From a plasmid, in the sequence record NZ_CP072215.1: DNA of 64,000 nt; one strand, written 5' to 3'. Positions 2,730-42,833 of this stretch are shown here, one piece after another. The stretch's first letter is position 1; each line of letters starts with the position of its first letter. The position numbers and the translations under genes were made by a program. The notes under the pieces were generated by a model. It ran no database searches. It saw nothing but the letters and a program-made list of their open reading frames with translations, and was not told the DNA's origin.

Positions 2730-4010
2730 ATGAAAAGATTTGTTTTGCAACAACTTATAGAATGGAAAAACCGTGAGGATAGAAAACCTCTGATTTTAAA
2801 TGGTGCCCGACAAGTTGGGAAAACATGGCTGCTCCATGAGTTTGCCAAACTTGAATACAAAAAAGAGGCTTATGTGGTATGCCGTAAGAATAACCTTGCA
2901 CGCCAGCTTTTTTCTCAGGATTTCAATGTTGACAGAATTTTACGGGGGCTGCGTGCGATGACTTCCGTTGACATTACTCCGGGTGATACGCTTATTATCC
3001 TTGATGAGATACAAGATATCCCGGAAGCACTGGAATCTTTGAAGTATTTTAAAGAGGAGGTTCCGGAGTATCATATAGCTGTGGCAGGTTCACTTTTGGG
3101 GATATCCCTTCATCAGGATGTGTCTTATCCCGTAGGGAAGGTAAATGTCATCAATATATTTCCTATGAACTTTGAAGAGTTTCTTGTCGCCAAGGGAGAA
3201 GAAGAAGCTTGTAAATTGCTTATGAGTGGGGATTTTGAAACGATAAGCCTCCTGCATGACAAATATACGGATCTCCTTCGGCAATATTATTATGTAGGTG
3301 GTATGCCGGAAGTTGTACTCAAATATGTAGAAACGGATTCCTTGCTGGAAGTCAGAAGAATACAGTCGGAGATTTTGCAAGGCTATGATCTTGACTTCTC
3401 AAAACATGCGCCCAAAGAACAGGTTCCGCGTGTCCGAATGGTATGGAACAGCATTCCTTCCCAATTATTTAAAGAAAACAAGAAATTCATTTACGGAGCT
3501 TTGCGAAAAGGTGCCAGAGCCAATGATTTTGAGATGGCCATTCAATGGCTTGTAAATGCCGGGTTGTTGTATAAAGTGCCTCGATGTACCAAACCGGAGC
3601 TTCCGCTTGATATTTATGAAGACCTGTCGGCTTTCAAACTCTATATGGTTGATTTGGGGCTTATGGGTGCTATGGTCAAGACAGATCCGGCCCAAGTCTT
3701 GATTAAAAACGACATATTTAAGGAATACAAGGGAGGAATGACTGAACAGTATGTATTGCAGCAGATGAAAAGTAAGGGCGTGTCACCGATTTATTACCAT
3801 AACACAGACAATTCGCGTCTTGAGTTGGATTTTGTTATTCAACGTAATGCCCAAATGGTGCCGATAGAAGTGAAGGCCGAAGGGAATGTCCGGGCCAATT
3901 CGTTGACAGCATTACTGGGAAAAAGACCGGAATTGCATGCGGAGAGATTTTCTATGTTGCCTTATAAAGTACAGGGTAATCTTACAAATTTTCCGCTATA
4001 TGCAATATAG
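2730..4010 (+). CDS. AAA-family ATPase with DUF4143-type C-terminal domain
   Basis: 426 aa. Walker A GARQVGKTW, Walker B LIILDEIQ. Typical Bacteroides ATPase architecture. Confidence 0.85.
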   Translation: MKRFVLQQLIEWKNREDRKPLILNGARQVGKTWLLHEFAKLEYKKEAYVVCRKNNLARQLFSQDFNVDRILRGLRAMTSVDITPGDTLIILDEIQDIPEALESLKYFKEEVPEYHIAVAGSLLGISLHQDVSYPVGKVNVINIFPMNFEEFLVAKGEEEACKLLMSGDFETISLLHDKYTDLLRQYYYVGGMPEVVLKYVETDSLLEVRRIQSEILQGYDLDFSKHAPKEQVPRVRMVWNSIPSQLFKENKKFIYGALRKGARANDFEMAIQWLVNAGLLYKVPRCTKPELPLDIYEDLSAFKLYMVDLGLMGAMVKTDPAQVLIKNDIFKEYKGGMTEQYVLQQMKSKGVSPIYYHNTDNSRLELDFVIQRNAQMVPIEVKAEGNVRANSLTALLGKRPELHAERFSMLPYKVQGNLTNFPLYAI

Positions 4011-4125
4011 GTGTATCCTTTTCCCATGCCGGTCATACCGTTAGAACTGATTGATAAGTATGATGCGTATGTTGGCCGGTATGTCTATCTTTGTGGCAAT
4101 GAAAACAGAGAGAGGATTGATTTAC
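4011..4125. repeat. ~110-bp direct repeat, copy 1 (copy 2 at 20557..20668, ~90% identical)
   Basis: CCGGTCATACCGTTAGAACTGATTGATAAGTATGATGCGTATGTTGGCCGGTATGTCTATCTTTGTGGCAATGAAAACAGAGAGAGGATTGATTT seen at both loci. Contains a TAtcTTTG (-7-like) motif. Confidence 0.7.
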
Positions 4126-4320: not shown

Positions 4321-5422
4321 GCATGGCTGAAAACTCTTCTTGCCGGTGTTCTTCTTCTTCATACAGCCTCATGCGTTCTTGTAATGCTTCTTTTAAATTG
4401 TCGCTTTTTTTCAGTCCGAGTTTGGCACGTATGTTCGCTCGTTGGCTGGTTATGTTTCCGCTACTCCGATGTAATAATTCGCATATTTGGCTGACGGTCT
4501 TGTCTTGCAGTATTAAACGGCAGATGTTTAATTCGGACGGGGATAAATTGGGATATATTCTCCTGATTGTATCAAGTTTACTTTTTTCCTTTTTCTGGTA
4601 TGCGGCAAGGGCTGTAAAAAGATTTTCTTTGGATTGTTCCCCTATTATGTTTAACAGGGAGCTTGTCTTTTCTTCCGGGTTATTCTCGCTTAACAACTCG
4701 GCGAACGCGAATAGTTCTTCCTTTTTCATTTGGAGACGTTTCAAAAGCATTTCCTCTTCCTCTTTTAGCAAGTTGCTACTTTTTAGCAAGCTGCTGATAT
4801 TACTGTGTAAGGATCTTCCTAATAAGGGGATCATGGTGTATATGATGATGATCAAAGGCAGATAACTGTATAGGAACGGTTCGTCGGTGATAAGTGTGCA
4901 GATTGTATAGGAAGCTATGGTAAGGGAGGACAATAGGATGGAGATATTACTCATATAGGCACAGATGGAAAGCATGGTAAATAAGAGAGAGATAGTAATG
5001 TTACTCATTATCAATGCTCTTTGATAACTATATTCATATCCGCTACATATTGAGCAATAAATTATTTCGATAAAAATCTCGATATGTATGGCTATCAGTA
5101 TAATGGAAAAGGTCGTGGTCAGATTTACTCTCTTTTTAAAATAAGCGAGAGTGCACATAATGATAAACAGGAATAATACGCTGTTAATATAATAAAACTG
5201 TTCATTGGGAAATGGAACTGAATATATGTATATGGGTGCGCATAAGACCAGCATGAGCAGGGATAGATGAAAGACTCGTTTTTGTTGATACGTTATTATC
5301 ATTTCTCTTTCTTTTTTGTCGTAAGTTTGAGTTTTTATTGAACTTAGAAAAGAGGCGGCTTTTGTGCTGATTTTCATGTGTTTTATTGTTTTAAGTGTTA
5401 TTAAGTATAATGTTTCCTGCAA
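4316..5422 (-). CDS. polytopic membrane protein with C-terminal LuxR/GerE-type HTH (membrane-bound transcriptional regulator)
   Basis: 368 aa. ~8 hydrophobic helices, then LSPSELNICRLILQDKTVSQICELLHRSSGNITSQRANIRAKLGL (LuxR-family HTH). Confidence 0.7.
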   Translation of the reverse strand: MQETLYLITLKTIKHMKISTKAASFLSSIKTQTYDKKEREMIITYQQKRVFHLSLLMLVLCAPIYIYSVPFPNEQFYYINSVLFLFIIMCTLAYFKKRVNLTTTFSIILIAIHIEIFIEIIYCSICSGYEYSYQRALIMSNITISLLFTMLSICAYMSNISILLSSLTIASYTICTLITDEPFLYSYLPLIIIIYTMIPLLGRSLHSNISSLLKSSNLLKEEEEMLLKRLQMKKEELFAFAELLSENNPEEKTSSLLNIIGEQSKENLFTALAAYQKKEKSKLDTIRRIYPNLSPSELNICRLILQDKTVSQICELLHRSSGNITSQRANIRAKLGLKKSDNLKEALQERMRLYEEEEHRQEEFSAMR

Positions 5423-5441
5423 AAATAACTGTTTTTTTTTT

Positions 5442-5458
5442 TTTTTTTGTATGTTTAA
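5442..5458. repeat. T17 homopolymer tract in the divergent intergenic region
   Basis: Uninterrupted run of 17 T (A17 on minus) about 20 bp upstream of the LuxR-type regulator start and ~225 bp upstream of the fimbrial-operon start. Confidence 0.9.
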
Positions 5459-5681
5459 GTACTTTTCTTTATGATGTTAAGTGTTTTTAATTGTTGTGTA
5501 AGCGTGATTGGCTGCTGTGGTAAGTGTTGTAGCTGTTGTGTGGTTGTCTTTTTAAGTATTTATAAGTTTAAAATACTTGTTTTTTGCTTTGGAGGTTGGT
5601 TTATAAGTGCATATCTTTAGCGGTTGAAATTCAGGGGGTGTAAAAGCCTGGGTTTGGATTGTCATATTAACAAATGATTAA

Positions 5682-6914
5682 ATGACGAAAAGATGTTTTT
5701 TTTATATTAAATGTGTATTGTTCGTGCTCGTGTTGAGTATAAGCGGAGAAATATCCGCTCAGGAGAAGCGTGATTCGGTAAGGATCTATTTTCATCAAGG
5801 AAAGGTAAATATAGATACATGTTTACTTGACAATGGGAACGAGATGGAGCGGTTTGCTAAAATCTGTTCCGCATTGAACGACTCCGTCCGTCTTATCAGG
5901 AAAATTCAAATAATAGGAGGAGCTTCCCCGGAAGGAGGGGGGCTGTTGAATGGAAGGCTGTCTGAAAAACGAGCAGAGGTTTTGTGGCGGTATATATCAC
6001 CTTATATAAAGATTCCGGTATTGGAGAAGGATTTTCATTTTTCGGGAAGCGACTGGAACGGACTTATAACGATGGTGAGAGCGGATGTGAATGTTCCGGA
6101 GAGGGAGGATGTCCTTCGTTTGTTGGAGAAGATCGTCCGTTTGGAAAACCAGGACAGCCCTTATTTGGGGGGAGAACTGAAAAGACTGAAAGGGGGGAGG
6201 CCATACTCATATTTGTATAAATTCCATTTTCCGAAACTTCGTTCGTCGATGGTGAAAATATGCTATGATAGTGATCCGATAAATCCCGTCAGAGATACGG
6301 TATATATACATACACGTGATACGTTGTGCATCCGTGATACCGTTACCGTCATAGCTCCGGTAAAGAAACGGCCGTTTTGCATGGCGGTGAAAACAAACTT
6401 GCTTTATGACGCTGTTTTGATACCTGACATCGGGGTTGAGTTCTGTTTGGGGAAGAACTGGTCTGTGGCCGGGAATTGGATGTATGCCTGGTGGAAAAGT
6501 GATCGGAAGCATAATTATTGGCGTATCTATGGGGGAGATGTGGAGTTGCGCCGCTGGTTCGGTCGGAGAGCGGTGGAAAAACCGTTTTCCGGGCATCATG
6601 TCGGATTGTACGGGCAGATCGTCACCTATGATTTCGAATTGGGTGGGAAAGGTTACTTGGGGGATAAATGGAGTTACGGGGGAGGCGTGGCTTACGGCTA
6701 CTCGTTACCTGTGGGACATCGGTTCAATGTGGATTTCACGTTGGGAATCGGCTACCTTGGAGGATCGTACAAGGAGTACATCCCTTTGGACGGTCACTAT
6801 GTATGGCAGACCACTAAAAACCGCCGCTGGTTCGGCCCGACCAAGGCGGGTATCTCTTTGGTGTGGTTGATCGGGCGGGGGAATTATAGCCGGAAGAAAG
6901 GAGGCAGGCAGTGA
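5682..6914 (+). CDS. secreted protein with DUF3575-like C-terminal beta-barrel-like domain; first gene of a putative Mfa-like (type V pilus) operon
   Basis: Signal peptide VLVLSISGEISAQE. C-terminal half rich in G/Y/W beta-strand pattern (LLYDAVLIPDIGVEF...GISLVWLIG). Gene order matches Bacteroides fimbrillin loci. Confidence 0.5.
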   Translation: MTKRCFFYIKCVLFVLVLSISGEISAQEKRDSVRIYFHQGKVNIDTCLLDNGNEMERFAKICSALNDSVRLIRKIQIIGGASPEGGGLLNGRLSEKRAEVLWRYISPYIKIPVLEKDFHFSGSDWNGLITMVRADVNVPEREDVLRLLEKIVRLENQDSPYLGGELKRLKGGRPYSYLYKFHFPKLRSSMVKICYDSDPINPVRDTVYIHTRDTLCIRDTVTVIAPVKKRPFCMAVKTNLLYDAVLIPDIGVEFCLGKNWSVAGNWMYAWWKSDRKHNYWRIYGGDVELRRWFGRRAVEKPFSGHHVGLYGQIVTYDFELGGKGYLGDKWSYGGGVAYGYSLPVGHRFNVDFTLGIGYLGGSYKEYIPLDGHYVWQTTKNRRWFGPTKAGISLVWLIGRGNYSRKKGGRQ

Positions 6915-7831
6915 TACGGATACGCTTTAGTCTGGTGTTCATATTTTTATGGATAGGACTGACGGCTTGTGAGCATAAGGATTTATGTTACGATCATCCG
7001 CACTTTGCCACGGTGCGGGTAATATTCGACTGGACCAAGATTTCCAATCATGACAAGCCTGAAGGCATGAGGGTCGTATTTTATCCGACCGACGATGAAA
7101 GCAACACGTGGATATTTGATTTCCCCGGAGGAGAGGATGGGGAAGTGGAGCTTCCCGAGAATGATTACCGGGTAATTTGCTTCAACTACGATACCGACGG
7201 GATGGTTTGGAAAGAAAACGGCAGTTACACGCTTTTTACTGCCGATACGCGTGATGTGCAGTCGCCGGATAACCGGACAATGGCTGTCACCCCACCTTGG
7301 CTGTGTGGCGACCATATAGACGAAGTTATCCTCAAGGACATTCCGGGAGGAAGCGCGGAGATAGTACGGCTGACTCCCGTAAACATGGTATGTCACTACA
7401 CGTATGAGGTGAACGGTCTTCGGGGACTGGATAGGGTGGCGGATTTGCGGGCCGCTCTTTCCGGCATGTCCGGCTCGCTTAACATGTCCGCCGACAGTTT
7501 GCCCGCCGGTCTTTCGGAGAGCCTGCTCTTTGATGGAATGGTTTCACGGAATCAGATTATAGGCGGATTCTATACGTTTGGACATTCCGCACTTGAAGGA
7601 GAGCCCAATGTTTTCCGGTTGTATCTCAAGAACCGTTCAGGCAGCATGTCTGTATTGGAACAGGACGTGAGCGGCCAAGTGCATGATGTCCCGGTAGTGG
7701 GGCATGTCGGTGATGTGCATCTGGTGTTGAATTTTGATTATGAGGTTCCATCCGAGCCGGGAAGTGACGGTGCGGGATTTGATGTGGACGTTGATGATTG
7801 GGATGATGTGAATATGGATATAGTGTTGTAA
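6911..7831 (+). CDS. lipoprotein, putative Mfa2/FimB-like fimbrial accessory/anchor subunit
   Basis: Lipobox LTAC. 4-nt overlap with the upstream gene. Sits between the DUF3575-like gene and the fimbrillin gene. Confidence 0.4.
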   Translation: MIRIRFSLVFIFLWIGLTACEHKDLCYDHPHFATVRVIFDWTKISNHDKPEGMRVVFYPTDDESNTWIFDFPGGEDGEVELPENDYRVICFNYDTDGMVWKENGSYTLFTADTRDVQSPDNRTMAVTPPWLCGDHIDEVILKDIPGGSAEIVRLTPVNMVCHYTYEVNGLRGLDRVADLRAALSGMSGSLNMSADSLPAGLSESLLFDGMVSRNQIIGGFYTFGHSALEGEPNVFRLYLKNRSGSMSVLEQDVSGQVHDVPVVGHVGDVHLVLNFDYEVPSEPGSDGAGFDVDVDDWDDVNMDIVL

Positions 7832-7876
7832 TATGAGTTTATTAATTATATGTATCAATTTGATTTATTTTTATTT

Positions 7877-9013
7877 ATGAAAAAAAGTACAGTAATGCTT
7901 TGGGCAATCTTTGGAGCTCTACTCATGGGTTGCTCAGACGAGGAGATTGCGAATGTGGAAACCTCCTCACGGAATGCGATTGGTTTTAACGTGTTAAGTA
8001 ATGCGGCGGAAACGAGGGCTACCCCTACTACCAACACCAACTTGAAGAACACCGATTTCGACGTGTTCGCTTTTACGGCGGATGGTACTGCCTTCATGGG
8101 AAAGGTAGACACGGATTTTGGACATGACGGAGTGAATATCGTGTACAATAATGGTAAGTGGGATTATAAAAATGCGAGCGACCTTCGTTATTGGCCTACC
8201 GAGGCTTTGGACTTTTACGCATTCAATCCCGGAACGGTTGATGAAGCCATGCAGTGGAGTTATATGTGGGAAGCCACCAAGGATACTCAAAAGATAACTT
8301 ATTCCTGCTCCGATGAGTATGGATCTGGTATCAATGCTCATGAAAACTACGACGTGATGTATGCCATAGCCAAAGGCCAGACAAAAGACAAGAACAACGG
8401 AGTAGTGAAATTTAACTTCAAGCATATTCTGTCACAGGTCGTATTCAAAGCAAAGACCGAATACGATAACATGCAGGTGAATATAAAGGACATCAAGATT
8501 TTTAATGTAAAAATGGGCGGCGTCTACACATTGCCTGCGACAGCCGATGGAACGGGAAGTTGGGCTGTGGGTGATTGGCCTGAAAGCTCTACAGGAGGAG
8601 GTTTTATTACCGTAGTGCAAGGCAAATTCATCGAGGTCAATAGTAATACCACAGCTACCGATATTTCCGAAAAAACTCCTATGCTGAATATACCACAGAA
8701 GCTGACAGCATGGAAAGTTTCCGAAGAAGCCACCAATACCAAGATAAAAGCCGACGGTGCGCATCAATGTTACCTGTCGATCACCTGCAAAATCCAGCAG
8801 TCCGGAGGTTATCTGTTGGGTTCAGCAGATAGTTACGGAACAATTTATGTTCCGTTCGGAGATACATGGGTAGCGGGCAAGCGTCATATCTACACGTTGA
8901 TTTTCGGTGGTGGTTATACTGATCAGGGAGAGGCTGTGTTGAATCCGATCCAGTTTGATGCAGAGACAACAGGCTGGGTTGATGCAAATAGCAACGTAAA
9001 CGTTAAACCTTAA
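7877..9013 (+). CDS. fimbrillin-family lipoprotein (Mfa1/FimA-like)
   Basis: ORF from 7850; likely start MKKSTVMLWAIFGALLMGCSDEE (lipoprotein signal). Size and composition typical of Bacteroidales fimbrillins. Confidence 0.5.
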   Translation: MKKSTVMLWAIFGALLMGCSDEEIANVETSSRNAIGFNVLSNAAETRATPTTNTNLKNTDFDVFAFTADGTAFMGKVDTDFGHDGVNIVYNNGKWDYKNASDLRYWPTEALDFYAFNPGTVDEAMQWSYMWEATKDTQKITYSCSDEYGSGINAHENYDVMYAIAKGQTKDKNNGVVKFNFKHILSQVVFKAKTEYDNMQVNIKDIKIFNVKMGGVYTLPATADGTGSWAVGDWPESSTGGGFITVVQGKFIEVNSNTTATDISEKTPMLNIPQKLTAWKVSEEATNTKIKADGAHQCYLSITCKIQQSGGYLLGSADSYGTIYVPFGDTWVAGKRHIYTLIFGGGYTDQGEAVLNPIQFDAETTGWVDANSNVNVKP

Positions 9014-11919: not shown

Positions 11920-12558
11920 ATGAATGTGGTTATTTATTCACGTGTAAGCTCGCAGTCGGCCAGGCAATCGACCGAACGGCAGGTTGTCGATCTGGAGAGG
12001 TTCGCAGCCGGACGGGGGTACGAGGTGACGGCGGTCTTTGAGGAAAAGATAAGCGGACGAAAGGCCAATATCGAACGCCCGGTTTTAAGCCGTTGCCTGG
12101 AATACTGCACAGATCCGCAGAACCGGGTGGATATGTTGTTGCTGACCGAGATCTCACGCCTGGGGCGTTCAACCCTGGAGATCCTAAAGTCACTCGATAC
12201 GCTGCACACGCATAAAATATGCGTGTATATTCAAAACCTGAACCTGGAAACGTTACGGCCGGACAAGACGGTAAACCCCTTGTCCTCTCTGATCACTACC
12301 CTGTTGGGGGAACTGGCCGCGATCGAACGCCAGGGGATCATCGACCGCCTTAATAGCGGACGGGAGTTGTACATCCAGAAAGGGGGCAGGCTGGGACGGA
12401 AGCCGGGAAGCCGGAAAACGGCCGAACAGAGGAAAGAGGAATACCGGGAGGCGATCGCCTTGTTAAAGAAAGGCTACTCGATCCGGAACGTGGCGAAGCT
12501 CACGGGAAAGGCCGTTTCGACGATACAACAAGTAAAAAAAGACTTCATTAGTAGCTGA
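11920..12558 (+). CDS. serine recombinase (resolvase/invertase family) with C-terminal HTH
   Basis: Catalytic YSRVSS (Ser10), ISRLGRS motif, C-terminal YSIRNVAKLTGKAVSTIQQV HTH. GC content clearly above flanks. Confidence 0.9.
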   Translation: MNVVIYSRVSSQSARQSTERQVVDLERFAAGRGYEVTAVFEEKISGRKANIERPVLSRCLEYCTDPQNRVDMLLLTEISRLGRSTLEILKSLDTLHTHKICVYIQNLNLETLRPDKTVNPLSSLITTLLGELAAIERQGIIDRLNSGRELYIQKGGRLGRKPGSRKTAEQRKEEYREAIALLKKGYSIRNVAKLTGKAVSTIQQVKKDFISS

Positions 12559-18556: not shown

Positions 18557-18945
18557 ATCCCTATCTTGGTTATAAGTTCATGAATCCTTGCCACTGCCAC
18601 CTTGCAGTCCCACCGTTCATCGTGGAAGCCTCCGGCGTTTGCCTTACGCGCAAGCTGGTTGAGATTGTTAGCCATGCCGCAGAGTTGGCGGATGTATCCG
18701 GCATGTTCCTCCGACAGCCGTTCTTTCACATGACCGTTACGGAAACATTCCCTCATGTACTCGCTTGGTGATACGCCCGCCTCATGCGATCGTGTCAGCA
18801 GGCGGAAGTAGTCGGCTGCCGTCATTTTCACTGCGATACGGTATTTCAGTTTCTCGGTTGCTGTTAATTCTTTGTATTTTCTTACCTGCCTCAAATCCGC
18901 AACTAAGCCCTTCAACGTCCTTCTTGCGTGTACACGTCCTCTCAT
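18553..18945 (-). CDS. mobA: MobC-family relaxosome accessory protein (Bacteroides MobA-like)
   Basis: Conserved LCGMANNLNQLARKAN motif. 4-nt overlap with the relaxase gene. Confidence 0.8.
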   Translation of the reverse strand: MRGRVHARRTLKGLVADLRQVRKYKELTATEKLKYRIAVKMTAADYFRLLTRSHEAGVSPSEYMRECFRNGHVKERLSEEHAGYIRQLCGMANNLNQLARKANAGGFHDERWDCKVAVARIHELITKIGI

Positions 18946-18968
18946 TACTGAATTATCAGATAAATTGA

Positions 18969-18990
18969 GGCAGAAACACCCACTTCTGCC
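18969..18990. promoter_or_regulatory. inverted repeat GGCAGAA-N8-TTCTGCC upstream of the mob operon; candidate oriT hairpin
   Basis: Only clear inverted repeat in the ~115 bp between mobA and the IS1380 remnant. Confidence 0.25.
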
Positions 18991-19059
18991 TACAACATCC
19001 CCTTACCCCACAATGCGACTTGAGACAATACGCAGTATCATACCCATAAGTTGTAGGCG

Positions 19060-20301
19060 TTATCCAAAATCAGTCTGAAAAATATCTGCGTAAGCATTGT
19101 TACAGGTATAGATATTCAGCACATACCGCCTTGATGTCCTGATCCACTTGGCTGGTACAGAGATAAACCTGAAGACAAACGCTTTTATGCGACTTGTTGC
19201 ATTGAGTCCGAACCTCTTTACGTCAAGTCTTTGGATAATGGCCTTGTAGAAGTTACGGATAAGTGCTGTAAGAAGAAGGAACACAGTGTTCTCGGCCATG
19301 AAGGATTTGGGCAATCTGTCCCACCCGAAACCATTGTTCATATCATCAAAGATACGTTCCTTTCCTCCACGAAGGTTATAGAACTCGACAATTTCTCTTA
19401 CGGAAGATTCATAGTCGTTAGTCAGGATACAACGGTATGTGTATTCTCCTTCCCAAAGATCCTGCACACCATCCATCCGTTTCTGTCTTTGAATCACAAG
19501 TCGGTATGCTTTACCCTTCCACTTCTCAACAAGGATAGAGTTCAATTCAAACTCAATGCCATTGATTTCCTCAGTCTTCCAGCCTCTGAGAGCAAATATG
19601 TCATTGTAGAGCGAACTGCAGCGGTTAGTGCGGATATAGAAGGACTTGCAGTGTTTCTCTATTTCCTCCACGATTTCCTCGGAACATGATCCGCAATCAG
19701 CTCTGAAACGATTGATAGTGAGCCTGTTCTGTTCAAATCTCTCAAAGAACCTCTTCAGCGTGTCCTTCTGATGAAAACGAAGGTTTTCGTTAAGCCAGAT
19801 GAGCAGAGCTAAGTTTACTTAAGCTCTGCCATGGCGAGAAAACGTGCCATGAAATGGAACTTTTGTGTTACCATCGCTATTCTCAATGCCAACAATCAAG
19901 TCACCAATAACCGCCACGCCAGGGCGATAACCAGAGAACTTCTTGTATGTAGGCTTTGCATCATACTTCTCACCCTCTTTCAGTTGGTCAGATGCAAACA
20001 TACAATTGAGCAGTAAAGTATTGAGAGTGTCAGCCGTGTTGAAATCGTAGTTCTTACCCGTATCTGATGTGTATGAGATGTTTTCTTGCGTCAGTTCCTT
20101 TATCGCTCTGAGGATAGTATCAGAACTACAAGTATGAAGTGTCGGATGAAGCGAGAGATGGTTCATCAAATGAGTAGTGACATCCTCAATACATGAGCCA
20201 CCACAGAAGTAGATACTCATGAGAGAACGGATGATTTCGCTGTACTGATAACCTAACGATCTACACCTTAGACCGAGGGTTGAGTCGATTACAGATGACA
20301 A
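19060..20301 (-). pseudogene. IS1380-family transposase split into two ORFs (N-part 19819..20301, C-part 19060..19671); the N-part has a TTG start and lacks the usual N-terminal ~25 aa
   Basis: SSVIDSTLGLRCRSLGYQYSEIIRSLMSIYFCGGSCIEDV block and a C-terminal DDE region. 147-bp gap and frame break between the parts. Confidence 0.65.
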
Positions 20302-20556
20302 TGTGGAGTCAAATTGCTCATCAGGTAGGGCGGAAGGATTTCGAGGAATTTGGACGACGCATAGGGTTGGGCAATAAATTGATAAAGCGTGAGCTTGATG
20401 AGTTTGTCAAAGAGAAACCATTGGTGCAAGTATTGATAGACCGTTCCTTTTTATCGGAAGAACTGAAAAAGTAATATAGGATGTCTATGGGGTACAGGTG
20501 TAAGATGCTTTCTTTCTGATGAAGGGCGGATAAAGCATTCTTCAGGAAAGTACTTC

Positions 20557-20668
20557 TCCTTTTCCCATACCGGTCATACCGTTAAAACTGATTGATAATT
20601 ATGACGCGTATGTTGGCCGGTATGCCTATCTTTGTGGCAATGAAAACAGAGAAAGGATTGATTTTGTA
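20557..20668. repeat. ~110-bp direct repeat, copy 2 (see 4011..4125); 5' region of the Rep-like gene
   Basis: ~90% identical to 4011..4125. Contains the TAtcTTTG motif ~45 bp upstream of the ATG at 20678. Confidence 0.7.
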
Positions 20669-29972: not shown

Positions 29973-30659
29973 TTTTGCGTTCACGCAGTATTCTTTCCCA
30001 CCCTCCCCTTCATCGGAATGACTGTTCTCATTTCCGGTTTACCCGTAGTCATCCGCTATGCGGCTGATTATGGGCAAACCAGAAAAGAGAAGTTCCAAAC
30101 GTGGGCGGGATTGCAATGGTCATCATCCGGAGCTTCGGCATTGCCGAAACAACCTCCTTCTTCCGTATTGCAGCCCCGTCCTTTTACCGTTTGTCCCGGC
30201 AGTCCGTTGCTAACCCGTTCCCCCCTGCCACTTGTGGCAGGGAGATAGGAATACGGTTTTGCAGGCAAAACCGTATGGCTTGTTTTACTTTCCGTACTGC
30301 CCTTTTCCTAGTTTTCTGCCTCCCTTAATGTGCGTTTTTCATAGCCCCATCTGAGACCCTTTGTTTTTGAACGGCAAATTTATTTCGGTGGATGGATACG
30401 AAAGAGTTCCGGTCTTCGCCCTTTGTCCCGAAAAAAATAACGCCGGACGGCTTCGCTGTCCCCAACATTTTTTGTCGTCCAAAACTTTTCTTAATCCCTC
30501 CTTCCTTATTGTTGTGTGCCGTAAAAAAAAGGCTCATAAACTCAGATGGGGCATGAAAGCTCAAAAAAAAAGTCGGCAGAAAGAAAAGGCCATCCCGGAA
30601 AGGGGTTTTAAAAAAAGGTCTTTAAATCTAGCTGAAGCATAAAATTAGAAGTTTAACAA
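29973..30659. repeat. repeat family A, copy 1: ~690-bp hairpin-rich non-coding element ending 20 bp before a gene start
   Basis: Near-identical to 33044..33711 and 42146..42833. Starts TTTGCGTTCACGCAGTATTCTTTCCCACCC, ends TCTAGCTGAAGCATAA(AATTAGAAGTTTAACAA). Confidence 0.85.
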
Positions 30660-33043: not shown

Positions 33044-33711
33044 TTTGCGTTCACGCAGTATTCTTTCCCACCCTCCCCTTCATCGGAATGACTGTTCTCA
33101 TTCCCGGTTTACCCGTAATCATCCGCTATGCGGCTGATTATGGGTAAACCGGAAAAGAGAAGTTCCAAACGTGGGCGGGATTGCAATGGTCATCATCCGG
33201 AGCTTCGGCATTGCCGAAACAACCTCCTTCTTCCGTATTGCAGTCCCTTCCTTTTACCGTTTGTCCCGGCAGTCCGTTGCTAACCCGTTCCCCCCTGTCA
33301 CTTGTGGCAGGGAGATAGGAGTATGGTTTTGCTTGCAAAACCGTATGGCTTGTTTTACTTTCCGTACTGCCCTTTTCCTTGTTTTCTGCCTCCCCTAATG
33401 TGCTTTTTTCATAGCTCCATCTGAGAGCCTTTGTTTTTGAACGGCAAATTTATTTCGGTGGATGGATACGAAAGAGTTCCGGTCTTCGCCCTTTGTACCG
33501 AAAAAAATAACGCCGGACGGCTTCGCTGTCCCCAACATTTTTTGTCGTCCAAAACTTTTCTTAATCCCTCCTTCCTTATTGATGCGTGCCGTAAAAAAAA
33601 GGCTCATAAACTCAGATGGGGCATGAAAGCTCAAAAAAAAAGTCGGCAGAAAGAAAAGGCCATCCCGGAAAGGGGTTTAAAAAAAGGTCTTTAAATCTAG
33701 CTGAAGCATAA
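33044..33711. repeat. repeat family A, copy 2
   Basis: Near-identical to copy 1. Ends 26 bp before the ATG at 33737. Confidence 0.85.
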
Positions 33712-33736
33712 GTTTAATTTTAATAGATAAAAGACT

Positions 33737-37694: not shown

Positions 37695-38905
37695 TTTTTG
37701 CGTCCACTTAGTTTTTTCCCACCCACCCTTTCAGCGGAGTGACTGCCCGGCAGTCTGTTGCTTACCCATATGTCCTAGCCTTTTAGGGCTGTAGATAGGT
37801 AGTTGGATATTTCGCTGCCAAATCGGCAGTCCGCTTCAATCGTTTGCTTGCTTTTCTCCGAGTGGAGCCTTTCTGCTTTTCCGGTGGTGTAATCTTCTTT
37901 TATTGGAAACAGGTGTAGTGGCTGTATGCCTGTGTGGTTATGTTCTCCCGCAGAATCCGCAAGTCAGTTCTTCCGTTGCAGCTTTTCATTTTATCGTGCA
38001 GTCACTTTTTTCGATACGTGGAATATGATATGCTTCATTCTTCGGCTTCATTTTTTTAAAAGGAATTGCAGATGTTTCTTCCGGTGTGTCGATAGGCGGC
38101 TGACCATCTTTTCGGGATGTGCCATGCTTGCTGTCTAACCGGTTGTTTTTTGCATCCTTTCCAAACCTGTTACTGATTTTCAAGTTTTGTCTTTTTCATA
38201 TCATTTTTTAGGGAAGTCAAATCATTTTCCGTTGCAAATATAGATTGTTGCTAACCCCTTTTACGGGGATAAGGGGACGATTCACAAACACCACGTTGTT
38301 ATTCGTCTGAAATCTTCCTTTTTTTGCCTTGCACAAAAAGCGTATTTAACCCGAATTATTCGTTGCCATCTTCACCAATAAAAAAGTTACAAATCTTCCT
38401 TTTTCCGGCCAGCATAAAAAGAGTATTTATATCTTTTTTCATGGTGTCCCCCAAAGCCAACAATCAGTTATTGCACTGTAAAATTGATTAATTAACTTCT
38501 AAAAAATCAGAGATATGAAAAAGATTGAAAATTCATTCGCAGTAACAGGCAGGATTTGTAGGGATGCAGAAATCCATTTATTCGAAATAGTAAAGGTTGC
38601 ACACTTCTCTATTGTGGTCAGTCGCATAGGCAAGATAAATGAAGAAAAAACATTTGTTTCCTCTGTTATGAAAGTTGAAGCCTAGAGTAAGATGGAAGAC
38701 CGCTATGCTTTTTGGATACTGCAAAAAGATGTACTGATTACCGTTGAAGGCTACTTTAAGCCGGAAGAATGGACGGATTCTAAAAGTGGGGAGAAACGTA
38801 ACCGCATTGTGATGGTAGCTACTAAGTTCTACCCGACTCCGGAAAAATAAGAACCCCCGGACTAAAAAGAAAAAGCAATCAAACGATTGAAGCGGCACAA
38901 GGTCG
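37695..38905. repeat. segmental duplication, copy 1: family-B structured element + ssb-leader region + decayed ssb (deletion variant)
   Basis: Near-identical to 40735..42105 apart from an internal ~120-bp deletion and the decayed ssb. Confidence 0.75.
38520..38852 (+). pseudogene. ssb-like gene copy with in-frame stop and multiple substitutions
   Basis: Aligns with 41699..42097 but carries a TAG (GAAGCCTAGAGT) and divergent codons. Not present as an ORF in the track. Confidence 0.6.
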
Positions 38906-40734: not shown

Positions 40735-42105
40735 TTTCCCACCCACCCTTTCAGCGGAGTGACTGTCCCCGTTTCAGGATTTCTCATAGTCACTCGCAGG
40801 CTCCGTGATTGTGTGAAATCCAGGAATGGGGAAGGCAAAGGAGAGAGGCATATCCGGTCTGCTTTCGGAGCTTCGGCCACATCGAGACAACCTCTTTCCG
40901 GCGGCTATGCCACTCTCCTTTTATTTGCCCGGCAGTCTGTTGCTTACCCATATGCCCCAGCCTTTTAGGGCTGTATATAGGTAGTCGGATATTTCGCCGC
41001 TAAATCGGCAGTCCGCTTCAATCGTTTGCTTGCTTTTCTCCGAGTGGATGCCTTTCTGTTTTTCCGGTTGTATAATCTTCTTTTTCCGGAAACAGTTGTA
41101 GTGGCTGTATGCCTGTATGGTTATGTTCTCCCCGCAGAATCCGCAAGTCTGTTCTTCCGTTGCAGCCTTTCATTTTATCGTGCAGTCACTTTTTTCGATA
41201 CGTGGAATATTGTATGCTTCATTCTTCGGCTTCATTTTTTTAAAAGGAATTGCAGAGGTTTCTTCCGGTGTGTCGATAGGCGGCTGACCATATTTTCGGA
41301 ATGTGCCATGCTTGCTGTCTGACCGGTTGTTTTTTGCATCCTTTCCAAACCTGTTGCTGATTTTCAAGTTTTGTCTTTTTCATATCATTTTTTAGGGAAG
41401 TCAAATCATTTTCCGTTGCAAATATAGATTGTTGCTAACCCCTTTTACGGGGATAAGGGGACGATTCACAAACACCACGTTGTTATTCGTCTGAAATCTT
41501 CCTTTTTTTGCCTTGCATAAAAAGCGTATTTAACCCGAATTATTTGCTGCCATCTTCACCAATAAAAAAGTTACAAATCTTCCTTTTTCCGGCCAGCATA
41601 AAAAGAGTATTTATATCTTTTTTCATGGTGTCCCCCAAAGCCAACAATCAGTTATTGCACTGTAAAATTGATTAATTAACTTCTAAAAAATCAGAGATAT
41701 GAAAAAGATTGAAAATTCATTCGCAGTAACAGGTTTTATCGGTAAGGATGCAGAAATCCGTAGTTTTGAAACAGCAAGCGTAGCACGCTTTTCTATCGCG
41801 GTCAGCCGTGCAGACAAGACAGGTGAAGAAACCTCTTATGTTTCCGCTTTCATGGGGATTGAAGCCTGGAGAAAGAATGAAGCACTGGATTCCTTCGATG
41901 TATTGAAAAAAGGTGAGCTGATAACCGTTGAAGGCTACTTTAAGCCGGAAGAATGGACGGATTCTAAAAGTGGGGAGAAGCGTAACCGCATTGTGATGGT
42001 AGCCACCAAGTTTTATCCGGCTCCGGAAAAAGAAGAAGAAAAACCGGATCAGCCTAAACAGAAGGCTGTCTCTAAAAAGAAAAAAGCAAGCAAATGATTG
42101 AAGCG
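40735..42105. repeat. segmental duplication, copy 2: family-B element (full length) + leader + intact ssb
   Basis: See 37695..38905. Its family-B element retains a segment homologous to family A (GGAGCTTCGGCCACATCGAGACAACCTC). Confidence 0.75.
41699..42097 (+). CDS. ssb: single-stranded DNA-binding protein (OB-fold, conjugative-element type)
   Basis: FAVTGFIGKDAEIRSF...ARFSIAVSR...WRK...GELITVEGYFKPEEWTDSKSGEKRNRIV pattern and acidic/K-rich tail. Confidence 0.7.
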   Translation: MKKIENSFAVTGFIGKDAEIRSFETASVARFSIAVSRADKTGEETSYVSAFMGIEAWRKNEALDSFDVLKKGELITVEGYFKPEEWTDSKSGEKRNRIVMVATKFYPAPEKEEEKPDQPKQKAVSKKKKASK

Positions 42106-42145: not shown

Positions 42146-42833
42146 TTTGCGTTCACGCAGTATTCTTCCCCACCCTCCCCTTCATCGGAATGACTGTTCT
42201 CATTCCCGGTTTGCCCGTAGTCATCCGCTATGCGGCTGATTATGGGCAAACCAGAAAAGAGAAGTTCCAAACGTGGGCGGGATTGCAATGGTCATCATCC
42301 GGAGCTTCGGCATTGCCGAAACAACCTCCTTCTTCCGTATTGCAGTTCCTTCCTTTTACCGTTTGTCCCGGCAGTCCGTTGCTAACCCGTTCCCCCCCTG
42401 TCACTTGTGGCAGGGAGATAGGAATACGGTTTTGCAAGCAAAACCGTATGGTTTGTTTTACTTTCCGTACTGCCCTTTTCCTTGTTTTCTGCCTCCCCTA
42501 ATGTGCTTTTTTCATAGCTCCATCTGAGATCCTTTGTTTTTGAACGGCAAATTTATTTCGGTGGATGGATACGAAAGAGTTCCGGTCTTCGCCCCTTTGT
42601 CCCGAAAAAAATAACGCCGGACGGCTTCGCTGTCCCCAACATTTTTTGTCGTCCAAAACTTTTCTTAATCCCTCCTTCCTTATTGTTGTGTGCCGTAAAA
42701 AAAAGGCTCATAAACTCAGATGGGGCATGAAAGCTCAAAAAAAAAGTCGGCAGAAAGAAAAGGCCATCCCGGAAAGGGGTTTTAAAAAAAGGTCTTTAAA
42801 TCTAGCTGAAGCATAAAATTAGAAGTTTAACAA
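42146..42833. repeat. repeat family A, copy 3
   Basis: Near-identical to copies 1 and 2. Ends 19 bp before the ATG at 42852. Confidence 0.85.

Follow-up and report, generated by a model that had tools for sequence, protein, structure and literature searches.

The 64-kb window, by which we mean the whole stretch of plasmid DNA analysed here (64,000 nucleotides), carries a minus-strand regulator gene and, divergent from it, a plus-strand fimbrial operon. In the control region between them lies an uninterrupted tract of 17 T residues, read as A17 on the regulator strand; no other homopolymer in the window exceeds 9 nt (Table 1). From base composition, about 6e-5 runs of at least 17 nt would be expected in these 64 kb. 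The initial annotation had recognised the uninterrupted 17-nt tract but assigned it to 5442..5458, 10 nt to the right of where it is found, at 5432..5448, and because of this shift, together with the use of a mechanical ORF start, the distances derived from it were also off. The tract had been placed about 20 bp upstream of the regulator start, but 9 nt separate it from the mechanical TTG at 5422 and 54 nt from the ATG at 5377, the latter being the pertinent distance because RefSeq and the gene callers start the 353-aa protein at this ATG and not at the TTG. Its placement upstream of the first fimbrial gene stands, whereas the figure of about 225 bp gives way to 233 nt, counted to the DUF3575 ATG at 5682.

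Pfam agrees with the gene identities originally proposed, namely a membrane LuxR-type regulator on the minus strand diverging from genes for DUF3575, DUF5119 and an Mfa_like_1 fimbrillin, and by their domain content the latter three constitute a type V (Mfa-like) pilus operon of Bacteroidales. The mechanical reading frame of the fimbrillin starts at 7850, the RefSeq start being the equivalent of 7877, and the exact 410-aa DUF3575 protein is recorded in 9858 blocks of the assembly collection. The regulator, named 'LuxR C-terminal-related transcriptional regulator' in RefSeq (WP_005868810.1), has a Pfam match to GerE at its C-terminus (E=1e-4, just below the cut-off), and its AlphaFold (AF2) model, with a pLDDT of 82.9, comprises six helices in the membrane, a long linker helix and, at the C-terminus, an HTH of the NarL/LuxR type, for which a Foldseek comparison with solved structures returned RcsB, LiaR, GerE and NarL. 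The six-helix membrane part had no Pfam match and no match among solved structures; a sensor-domain identity was set aside, Pfam and Foldseek matching the HTH alone.

Natural alleles of the regulator have been broken more than once. A frameshift after SSLLK is represented by two clusters with 346 member sequences and another in the KEEEE codons by 38 sequences, a form with a short N-terminus accounts for 380 sequences, and the gene is interrupted by IS613 on pla1, a plasmid of B. zhangwenhongii, and by an IS-like insertion at ~5193-5198 in B. faecalis KCTC 15687. Such repeated breakage suggests that the activity of the regulator is under shifting selection. Elsewhere in the window an IS remnant (a DDE_Tnp_1 transposase fragment, 18889-20319), adjoining a relaxase/NikA-MobC pair, is related to the element found in the B. 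faecalis regulator gene, and a 108-nt repeat is shared by 4016-4123, after the AAA ATPase gene, and 20557-20664.

The window belongs to pMMCAT, a conjugative biofilm plasmid of human gut Bacteroidales. A megablast search with a 4.8-kb locus query found 100% identity to the Phocaeicola vulgatus DFI.4.81 plasmid NZ_CP143953.1 and 99.9% identity to Parabacteroides distasonis plasmids, and the neighbours in the window (HipA pairs, ParA, RhuM, and a radical SAM pair with an MBL hydrolase) are those of the pMMCAT description. This large conjugative 'plasmid-Mediated Microbiome Community Attachment' element is pervasive, and its description names the mfa locus and the adjacent LuxR-like regulator, homopolymers and slippage being absent from the text (10.1101/2024.04.29.590671). 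The plasmid is 99.99% conserved, with 3-9 SNPs per 98 kb between plasmids isolated decades apart, and the fimbrillin stalk gene is a hotspot of its variation (10.1101/2024.04.29.590671). Deletion of mfa abolishes aggregation; the level of Mfa, which correlates with aggregation, is strongly strain-dependent on near-identical plasmids, and a weak strain is rescued for aggregation by a constitutive mfa promoter (10.1101/2024.04.29.590671). The Mfa differences were ascribed by the authors to the host background, and no cis-acting explanation was put forward (10.1101/2024.04.29.590671).

Table 1. Genes and sequence elements of the regulator-fimbriae locus (positions in the window unless a plasmid is named)
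Feature	Position	Strand	Basis or remark
Regulator gene, 353 aa	4316..5377	-	RefSeq and gene callers start at ATG 5377
TTAAGTR motif pair, 10 bp apart, in the predicted regulator 5' leader	5389..5410	+	Direct-repeat family, recurs at 5550-5571
Predicted -7 box TATTTTTG (TAnnTTTG) of the regulator	5420..5427	-	Motif scan, at least 5/6 match
T17 tract (A17 on the regulator strand)	5432..5448	+	Read from the window
Perfect palindrome AAGTACTT	5457..5464	.	8 nt from the tract, on the side opposite the -7 box
GT-rich stretch with TAAGTG motifs	5468..5550	+	Composition scan, alignments
Inverted repeat AAGTATTT-N9-AAATACTT	5554..5578	.	10 nt before the predicted -33 of the fimbrial promoter
Predicted fimbrial promoter: TTTG 5588-5591, N20, TATCTTTA 5612-5619	5588..5619	+	Best full match
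DUF3575, first gene of the fimbrial operon	5682..6914	+	Pfam E=2e-44
DUF5119 gene	6911..7831	+	Pfam E=9e-62
Fimbrillin (Mfa_like_1) stalk gene	7877..9013	+	Pfam E=4e-29; RefSeq start equivalent 7877
(CA)n repeat of p5482 (NC_004703.1)	3242-3271 of locus L121		Finished-plasmid comparison

Elements of the control region

Both of the other elements noted at the outset near the tract, a GT-rich stretch and an 8-bp inverted repeat, are confirmed. The former, with 80% G+T, is the most G+T-rich 80-nt window in the 64 kb, and the latter, with arms at 5554-5561 and 5571-5578, is the single inverted repeat (8-nt arms, 9 nt apart) within 5300-5750 and a candidate binding site of the regulator, as the palindrome on the far side of the tract is its candidate operator. 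The pentamer AAGTA/TACTT occurs five times in the pMMCAT intergenic region against 0.86 expected (P=0.0015); among homologous intergenic regions it is found nine times against 1.9 expected in one, the enrichment being not significant in a third, and the 6-mers AAGTAT and TAAGTA rank first in abundance among those common to three homologous intergenic regions. Motifs resembling TACTTAA are likewise present in the leaders of homologous regulators. Proteins with a NarL/LuxR-type HTH bind such repeats as dimers, and we infer that the regulator binds the AAGTA-type motifs, the palindrome and the inverted repeat. Within the GT-rich stretch, 11 of the 107 aligned copies (~10%) have a 43-bp deletion (5484..5526) between TAAGTGTT direct repeats, with a loss of two TAAGTG motifs and of about four turns of the helix.

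Promoters of Bacteroides combine a TTTG at about -33 with a TAnnTTTG at about -7, the two being 19-21 nt apart. The best full match to this pattern on the fimbrial side is a predicted promoter, the -7 box of which aligns with TATCTTTG in p5482 and with TATTTTTG in a pMMCAT variant. It lies some 140-170 bp from the tract, and the elements to the right of the tract keep their spacing to it whatever the tract length. On this predicted -7 box SNPs and indels cluster (5606-5634), the main type being CATATCTTTAGCGG, and ~30% of copies carry either GTATTTTTGCGG, which matches TAnnTTTG perfectly, or the same with one T fewer, so that promoter strength may vary among the mfa variants alongside the stalk protein. 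A second polymorphic run, T8 at 5696-5703, begins 14 nt into the DUF3575 ORF; 55 copies have T7 here, 53 have T8 and two have T9. With T8 the ATG at 5682 is in frame, with T7 the ATG at 5694, and T9 fits neither; the two alternative starts thus buffer the one-base T7/T8 polymorphism, the state of which mostly tracks lineage.

Several other identities for the tract or its surroundings were considered and rejected. It is not the T-tail of an intrinsic terminator, there being no GC-rich hairpin before the T-run and no terminator-like site at the tract. Known structured RNAs were discarded for the intergenic region after an Rfam search of 5300-5750 gave no family match at E up to 1. Nor does the region have the makings of an invertible promoter, since the tract is without flanking inverted repeats and without an adjacent recombinase: the nearest one is a resolvase (11920-12558) beyond the fimbrial operon, and the upstream neighbours are the regulator, an AAA ATPase and HipA. 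Finally, a plus-strand promoter in which the end of the tract would serve as the -33 TTTG was discarded, the best -7 candidates matching at 5/6 positions and having no proper partner.

Tract length among copies of the locus

Copies of the tract were pooled from metagenome contigs, isolate assemblies and finished plasmids, giving 128 uninterrupted, independent copies, in which 17 different lengths between 5 and 25 nt are represented and 89% of copies are non-modal. The initial annotation had called the tract prone to slippage and had named invariance across strains as the observation that would count against a switch; what is found is a spread over this whole range across strains, plasmids and metagenomes. 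The flanks of the tract are near-invariant across the same copies, and nearby homopolymers of 5-7 nt in the same loci, taken as a control, are non-modal in 0-4% of copies. Already in the first ten loci fetched the tract measured 13, 13, 18, 10, 13, 17, 8, 18, 15 and 9 nt, the intergenic region being otherwise that of the window. A scan of metagenome contigs, in which the query consisted of the two flanks joined by a variable gap, yielded 107 contigs with tracts of 5-25 nt, one of them interrupted (T11A). The finished plasmids have 19, 12, 13, 12, 16, 15, 14 and 6 nt, and the species-representative genomes T15, T12, T6 and T18/T17, together with an interrupted T7CT8 in Alistipes putredinis.

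Recurrent change is indicated by 14 copies in which the 800-bp flanks are identical to those of the window and the tract is T7, 8, 10, 12, 12, 13, 13, 15, 16, 17, 18, 19, 21 and 25: on one and the same background lengths must have changed repeatedly, by gains as well as by losses. Since the rest of the plasmid accumulates 3-9 SNPs per 98 kb, the tract evolves orders of magnitude faster than its surroundings. To judge from these comparisons it is a real slippage hotspot, a slipped-strand hypermutable homopolymer.

It might be argued that the length differences are homopolymer errors of sequencing or assembly. Many of the metagenome contigs have low coverage, homopolymers of at least 15 nt are error-prone on all platforms, such that assembled ones may be off by a base or two, and a 96.9-kb contig of Bacteroides faecalis KCTC 15687 (NZ_BHWB01000015.1) contains the region twice, with tracts of T18 and T17. 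Yet errors of a base or two cannot account for a 20-nt range, the same spread is present in finished plasmids and isolate assemblies, and the neighbouring runs of 5-7 nt are 96-100% concordant in the same contigs, so an artefactual origin is highly improbable. The two B. faecalis copies, each a junction of IS, regulator 5' end, tract and mfa, represent either a true duplication or an assembly overlap. Assembly breaks at the tract were considered as a sign of heterogeneity within samples and dismissed: one short Logan contig spans A16 and ends near 5583.

Interrupted tracts are confined to the two copies T11A and T7CT8, and the interruption in the latter should stabilise the tract of Alistipes putredinis. 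That copy, in strain DSM 17216, lies on a 1.2-Mb scaffold and places the control region outside Bacteroidaceae and Tannerellaceae.

The distribution of lengths has no single-length peak and no 10-11 bp periodicity and fits a uniform one over 5-19 nt (chi-square p=0.30), from which it is indistinguishable, so that neither a preferred nor a helically periodic length is retained as an explanation. Tracts of at least T14 make up ~44% of copies and T6 is found in 13. Long tracts have been kept in the main lineage and in ~95% identical variants, and a tract is likewise retained in the 30-kb relatives (T15, T14 and T6 for variants and relatives together).

The predicted regulator promoter and the possible action of the tract

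On the minus strand of the intergenic region there is a single match of at least 5/6 to TAnnTTTG, the predicted -7 box TATTTTTG, and it lies 4 nt (CAGT) downstream of the A-tract. The box (5427..5420) is 50 nt upstream of the regulator ATG, which leaves a leader of ~40 nt; in homologous regulators a TAnnTTTG box is located at -35 to -98 from the ATG. On the regulator strand the order of elements is therefore the AAGTACTT palindrome, 8 nt, A(n), CAGT, the -7 box, the leader of ~40 nt and the ATG. The tract is thus predicted to lie within the core promoter of the regulator gene, occupying its -12 to -35 region. The expected -33 TTTG is absent upstream on the regulator strand of pMMCAT at any tract length, and A(n) fills the spacer position which homologous regulator promoters show as TTTG-N20-TAnnTTTG. 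With no -33 TTTG, spacing may matter little unless an activator binds upstream. As to the target, left open at the outset as the regulator and/or the fimbriae, the proximity of the predicted -7 box speaks for the regulator, the predicted fimbrial promoter being some 140-170 bp away; any effect of the tract on the fimbriae would most likely be exerted via the regulator.

On other contigs, regulators 56-58% identical to that of pMMCAT keep the divergent layout with DUF3575-DUF5119-fimbrillin. Two of these homologues (loci L122 and L128) have canonical promoters, TTTG-N20-TATCTTTG and TTTG-N20-TATATTTG, in the spacers of which the only runs are A5-A6. In six homologous modules (regulators 41-58% identical) the regulator promoter is free of long repeats, and no run anywhere in their intergenic regions exceeds A9 and T8. 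The tract is consequently not a conserved feature of the regulator family and is not needed for the module to work; the homologous spacers point to an expansion within the promoter spacer in the pMMCAT lineage.

A parallel is offered by the p5482-type plasmids of 32-35 kb, which share the replicon and the fimbrial operon and are without the regulator. A (CA)n repeat occupies the 5' end of the DUF3575 gene in these plasmids; in ten finished ones, which come from six species, n is 15, 23, 12, 14, 12, 12, 9, 7, 8 and 12. From an ATG upstream, the repeat is translated as (HT)n, in a frame that continues into the DUF3575 gene in only 2/10 of these plasmids. The presence of two unrelated hypervariable repeats on the same plasmid-borne operon makes a purely accidental origin less likely. 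Beside (CA)n, runs of A8/A7 and A6/A7 vary as well.

Our main reading, to which we assign even odds (a probability of about 0.5), is that the tract is a slipped-strand contingency element in the regulator promoter that would act on the Mfa fimbriae indirectly, via the regulator. Replication slippage would add A/T units to A(n) or remove them, and each change would shift both the distance and the helical phase, by ~34 degrees per base, between the -7 box and all DNA upstream of it. The candidate operator AAGTACTT would thereby be displaced, from about -35 at n=5 to about -55 at n=25. Transcription of the regulator would be reset by tract length, and the level of Mfa fimbriae and the aggregation of cells would follow the regulator, heritably and reversibly. 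The transcription start, the role of the operator, the control of the operon by the regulator and the effect of length on expression are here what we infer from the arrangement of the region.

The flat distribution over 5-19 nt keeps neutral hypermutability a serious rival, for it fits neutral drift at least as well as it fits a rheostat under fluctuating selection. On this account, which we regard as rather unlikely though still the nearest competitor, the tract is hypermutable by virtue of its length alone, this length is of no real consequence for the regulator or the fimbriae, and the diversity of lengths reflects drift from a long ancestral tract during recent spread; some pile-up at short stable lengths (the T6 copies), the lack of a -33 element whose spacing could suffer and the functioning of homologous modules without any tract would all be in keeping with it. 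Against neutrality, the run is situated 4 nt from a consensus -7 box, within -12 to -35 of the predicted promoter, and both the main lineage and the ~95% identical variants still carry tracts of at least T14, with lengths above the 17 of the window also represented. Furthermore, a second unrelated repeat on the same operon in sister plasmids would be an unlikely outcome of two neutral accidents, and Mfa output shows unexplained differences among strains.

Direct action of the tract on the fimbrial operon, through the spacing or phasing of flanking regulator motifs or through A-tract bending, appears improbable, and clearly more so than neutral drift. The region is a shared divergent control region, and TTAAGTR motifs are present on both sides of the tract (5389-5410 versus 5457-5610) and recur in modules, both of which speak for such an effect; the predicted fimbrial core promoter is nevertheless distant, the elements to the right of the tract have a fixed spacing to it, and the 43-bp deletion between tract and fimbrial promoter is tolerated in ~10% of copies.

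Known systems and wider meaning

Switches made of a homopolymer in a promoter spacer are a known kind. The closest precedent comes from Bordetella pertussis, where the C-stretch of the fim2, fim3 and fimX promoters, situated between the activator region and the -10 box, differs in length between strains and influences transcription (PMC1891110). The likeness to pMMCAT consists in a long homopolymer in the promoter of a fimbrial system; in pMMCAT, by contrast, the tract is poly(A/T) and not poly(C), stands before a regulator gene and not a fimbrial subunit gene, belongs to a predicted promoter of the -33/-7 type, is plasmid-borne and has a much wider range (5-25 nt). The activator of the Bordetella fim genes, BvgA, has a NarL/LuxR-type HTH, the same type as that of the pMMCAT regulator. 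In the Bordetella type the tract separates the activator site from the core promoter, and in pMMCAT the candidate site AAGTACTT is located 8 nt beyond the tract.

In Haemophilus influenzae a (TA)n repeat between hifA and hifB reportedly (van Ham et al.) sets the spacer length and so the fimbrial phase. As in pMMCAT, the repeat is a simple one and belongs to a divergent control region of fimbrial genes, but it lies in the overlapping -10/-35 spacers of both promoters, whereas the pMMCAT tract is in the predicted promoter of the regulator only. In the vlp genes of Mycoplasma hyorhinis a poly(A) tract of ~17 nt upstream of the -10 decides by its length between ON and OFF. There, however, the phylum and the promoter type are different, the tract controls the surface lipoprotein genes themselves, and a sharp ON length exists, none being evident for the pMMCAT tract. 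The invertible promoters of Bacteroides, including that of the pMMCAT eps locus, share with the tract the organisms, the plasmid and the class of target (surface structures, fimbriae), but what they vary is orientation and not length, and the tract has neither the flanking inverted repeats nor the adjacent recombinase of such systems. Bifidobacterium breve is reported to switch pilus clusters by replication slippage (PMC9187656). The likeness lies in a gut commensal, homopolymer slippage and pilus expression, and the difference in the phylum and in the chromosomal location (PMC9187656).

A 2025 review of phase variation links Bacteroides with invertases only (PMC11868660). No case of repeat-mediated phase variation in Bacteroides came to light in our literature search, slippage in B. 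fragilis being mentioned once, as a speculation on a run of 4 C's, and the remark in the initial annotation that a switch of this kind would be unusual for Bacteroides is in accord with a literature that, as far as it was searched, describes inversion-based switching only. New, then, is that such a tract occurs in the gut Bacteroidales, within a predicted promoter of the -33/-7 type, on a conjugative plasmid that is pervasive, and before a regulator gene instead of a structural one. The hypermutability of the tract is solid and has gone unreported. That pMMCAT carries a true SSR contingency locus, the first in an order known for inversion-based switching, which would tune Mfa and multispecies aggregation, is a more tentative proposition, to which we give somewhat less than even odds.

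Should this proposition be true, tuning would take place cell by cell and host by host and would explain the differing Mfa levels on near-identical plasmids, and the sister p5482-type plasmids would reach the same end by way of (CA)n on the operon itself. The tract is a concrete cis-acting candidate for the strain differences in Mfa and aggregation. If it is functional, biofilm formation by pMMCAT would be heritable yet rapidly reversible, and tract length would need to be typed in any comparison of pMMCAT phenotypes; if it is neutral, the tract would still provide a very fast marker for plasmid transfer between species within one person.

The module extends beyond pMMCAT to two smaller plasmids, that of B. 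xylanisolvens CL11T00C03 (30.8 kb), where the tract is T15, and B. finegoldii pJCM13345 (30.9 kb), where it is T6. Both are p5482-like and conjugative, the module adjoining traO and a DUF4425 gene, and both belong to replicon cluster 1702, as does pMMCAT. Either the regulator-mfa module has moved between plasmid backbones or pMMCAT has grown from a small p5482-like plasmid. Within the window three direct copies of a ~690-bp segment (29974-30659, 33044-33729 and 42146-42833), 85-100% identical and each with an A8 and an A9 run, are accompanied by a two-copy repeat of ~500 bp (37744-38246 and 40926-41430); the copies of these repeats are spaced 3.07-9.1 kb apart and may fall in the polysaccharide (eps) part of the plasmid.
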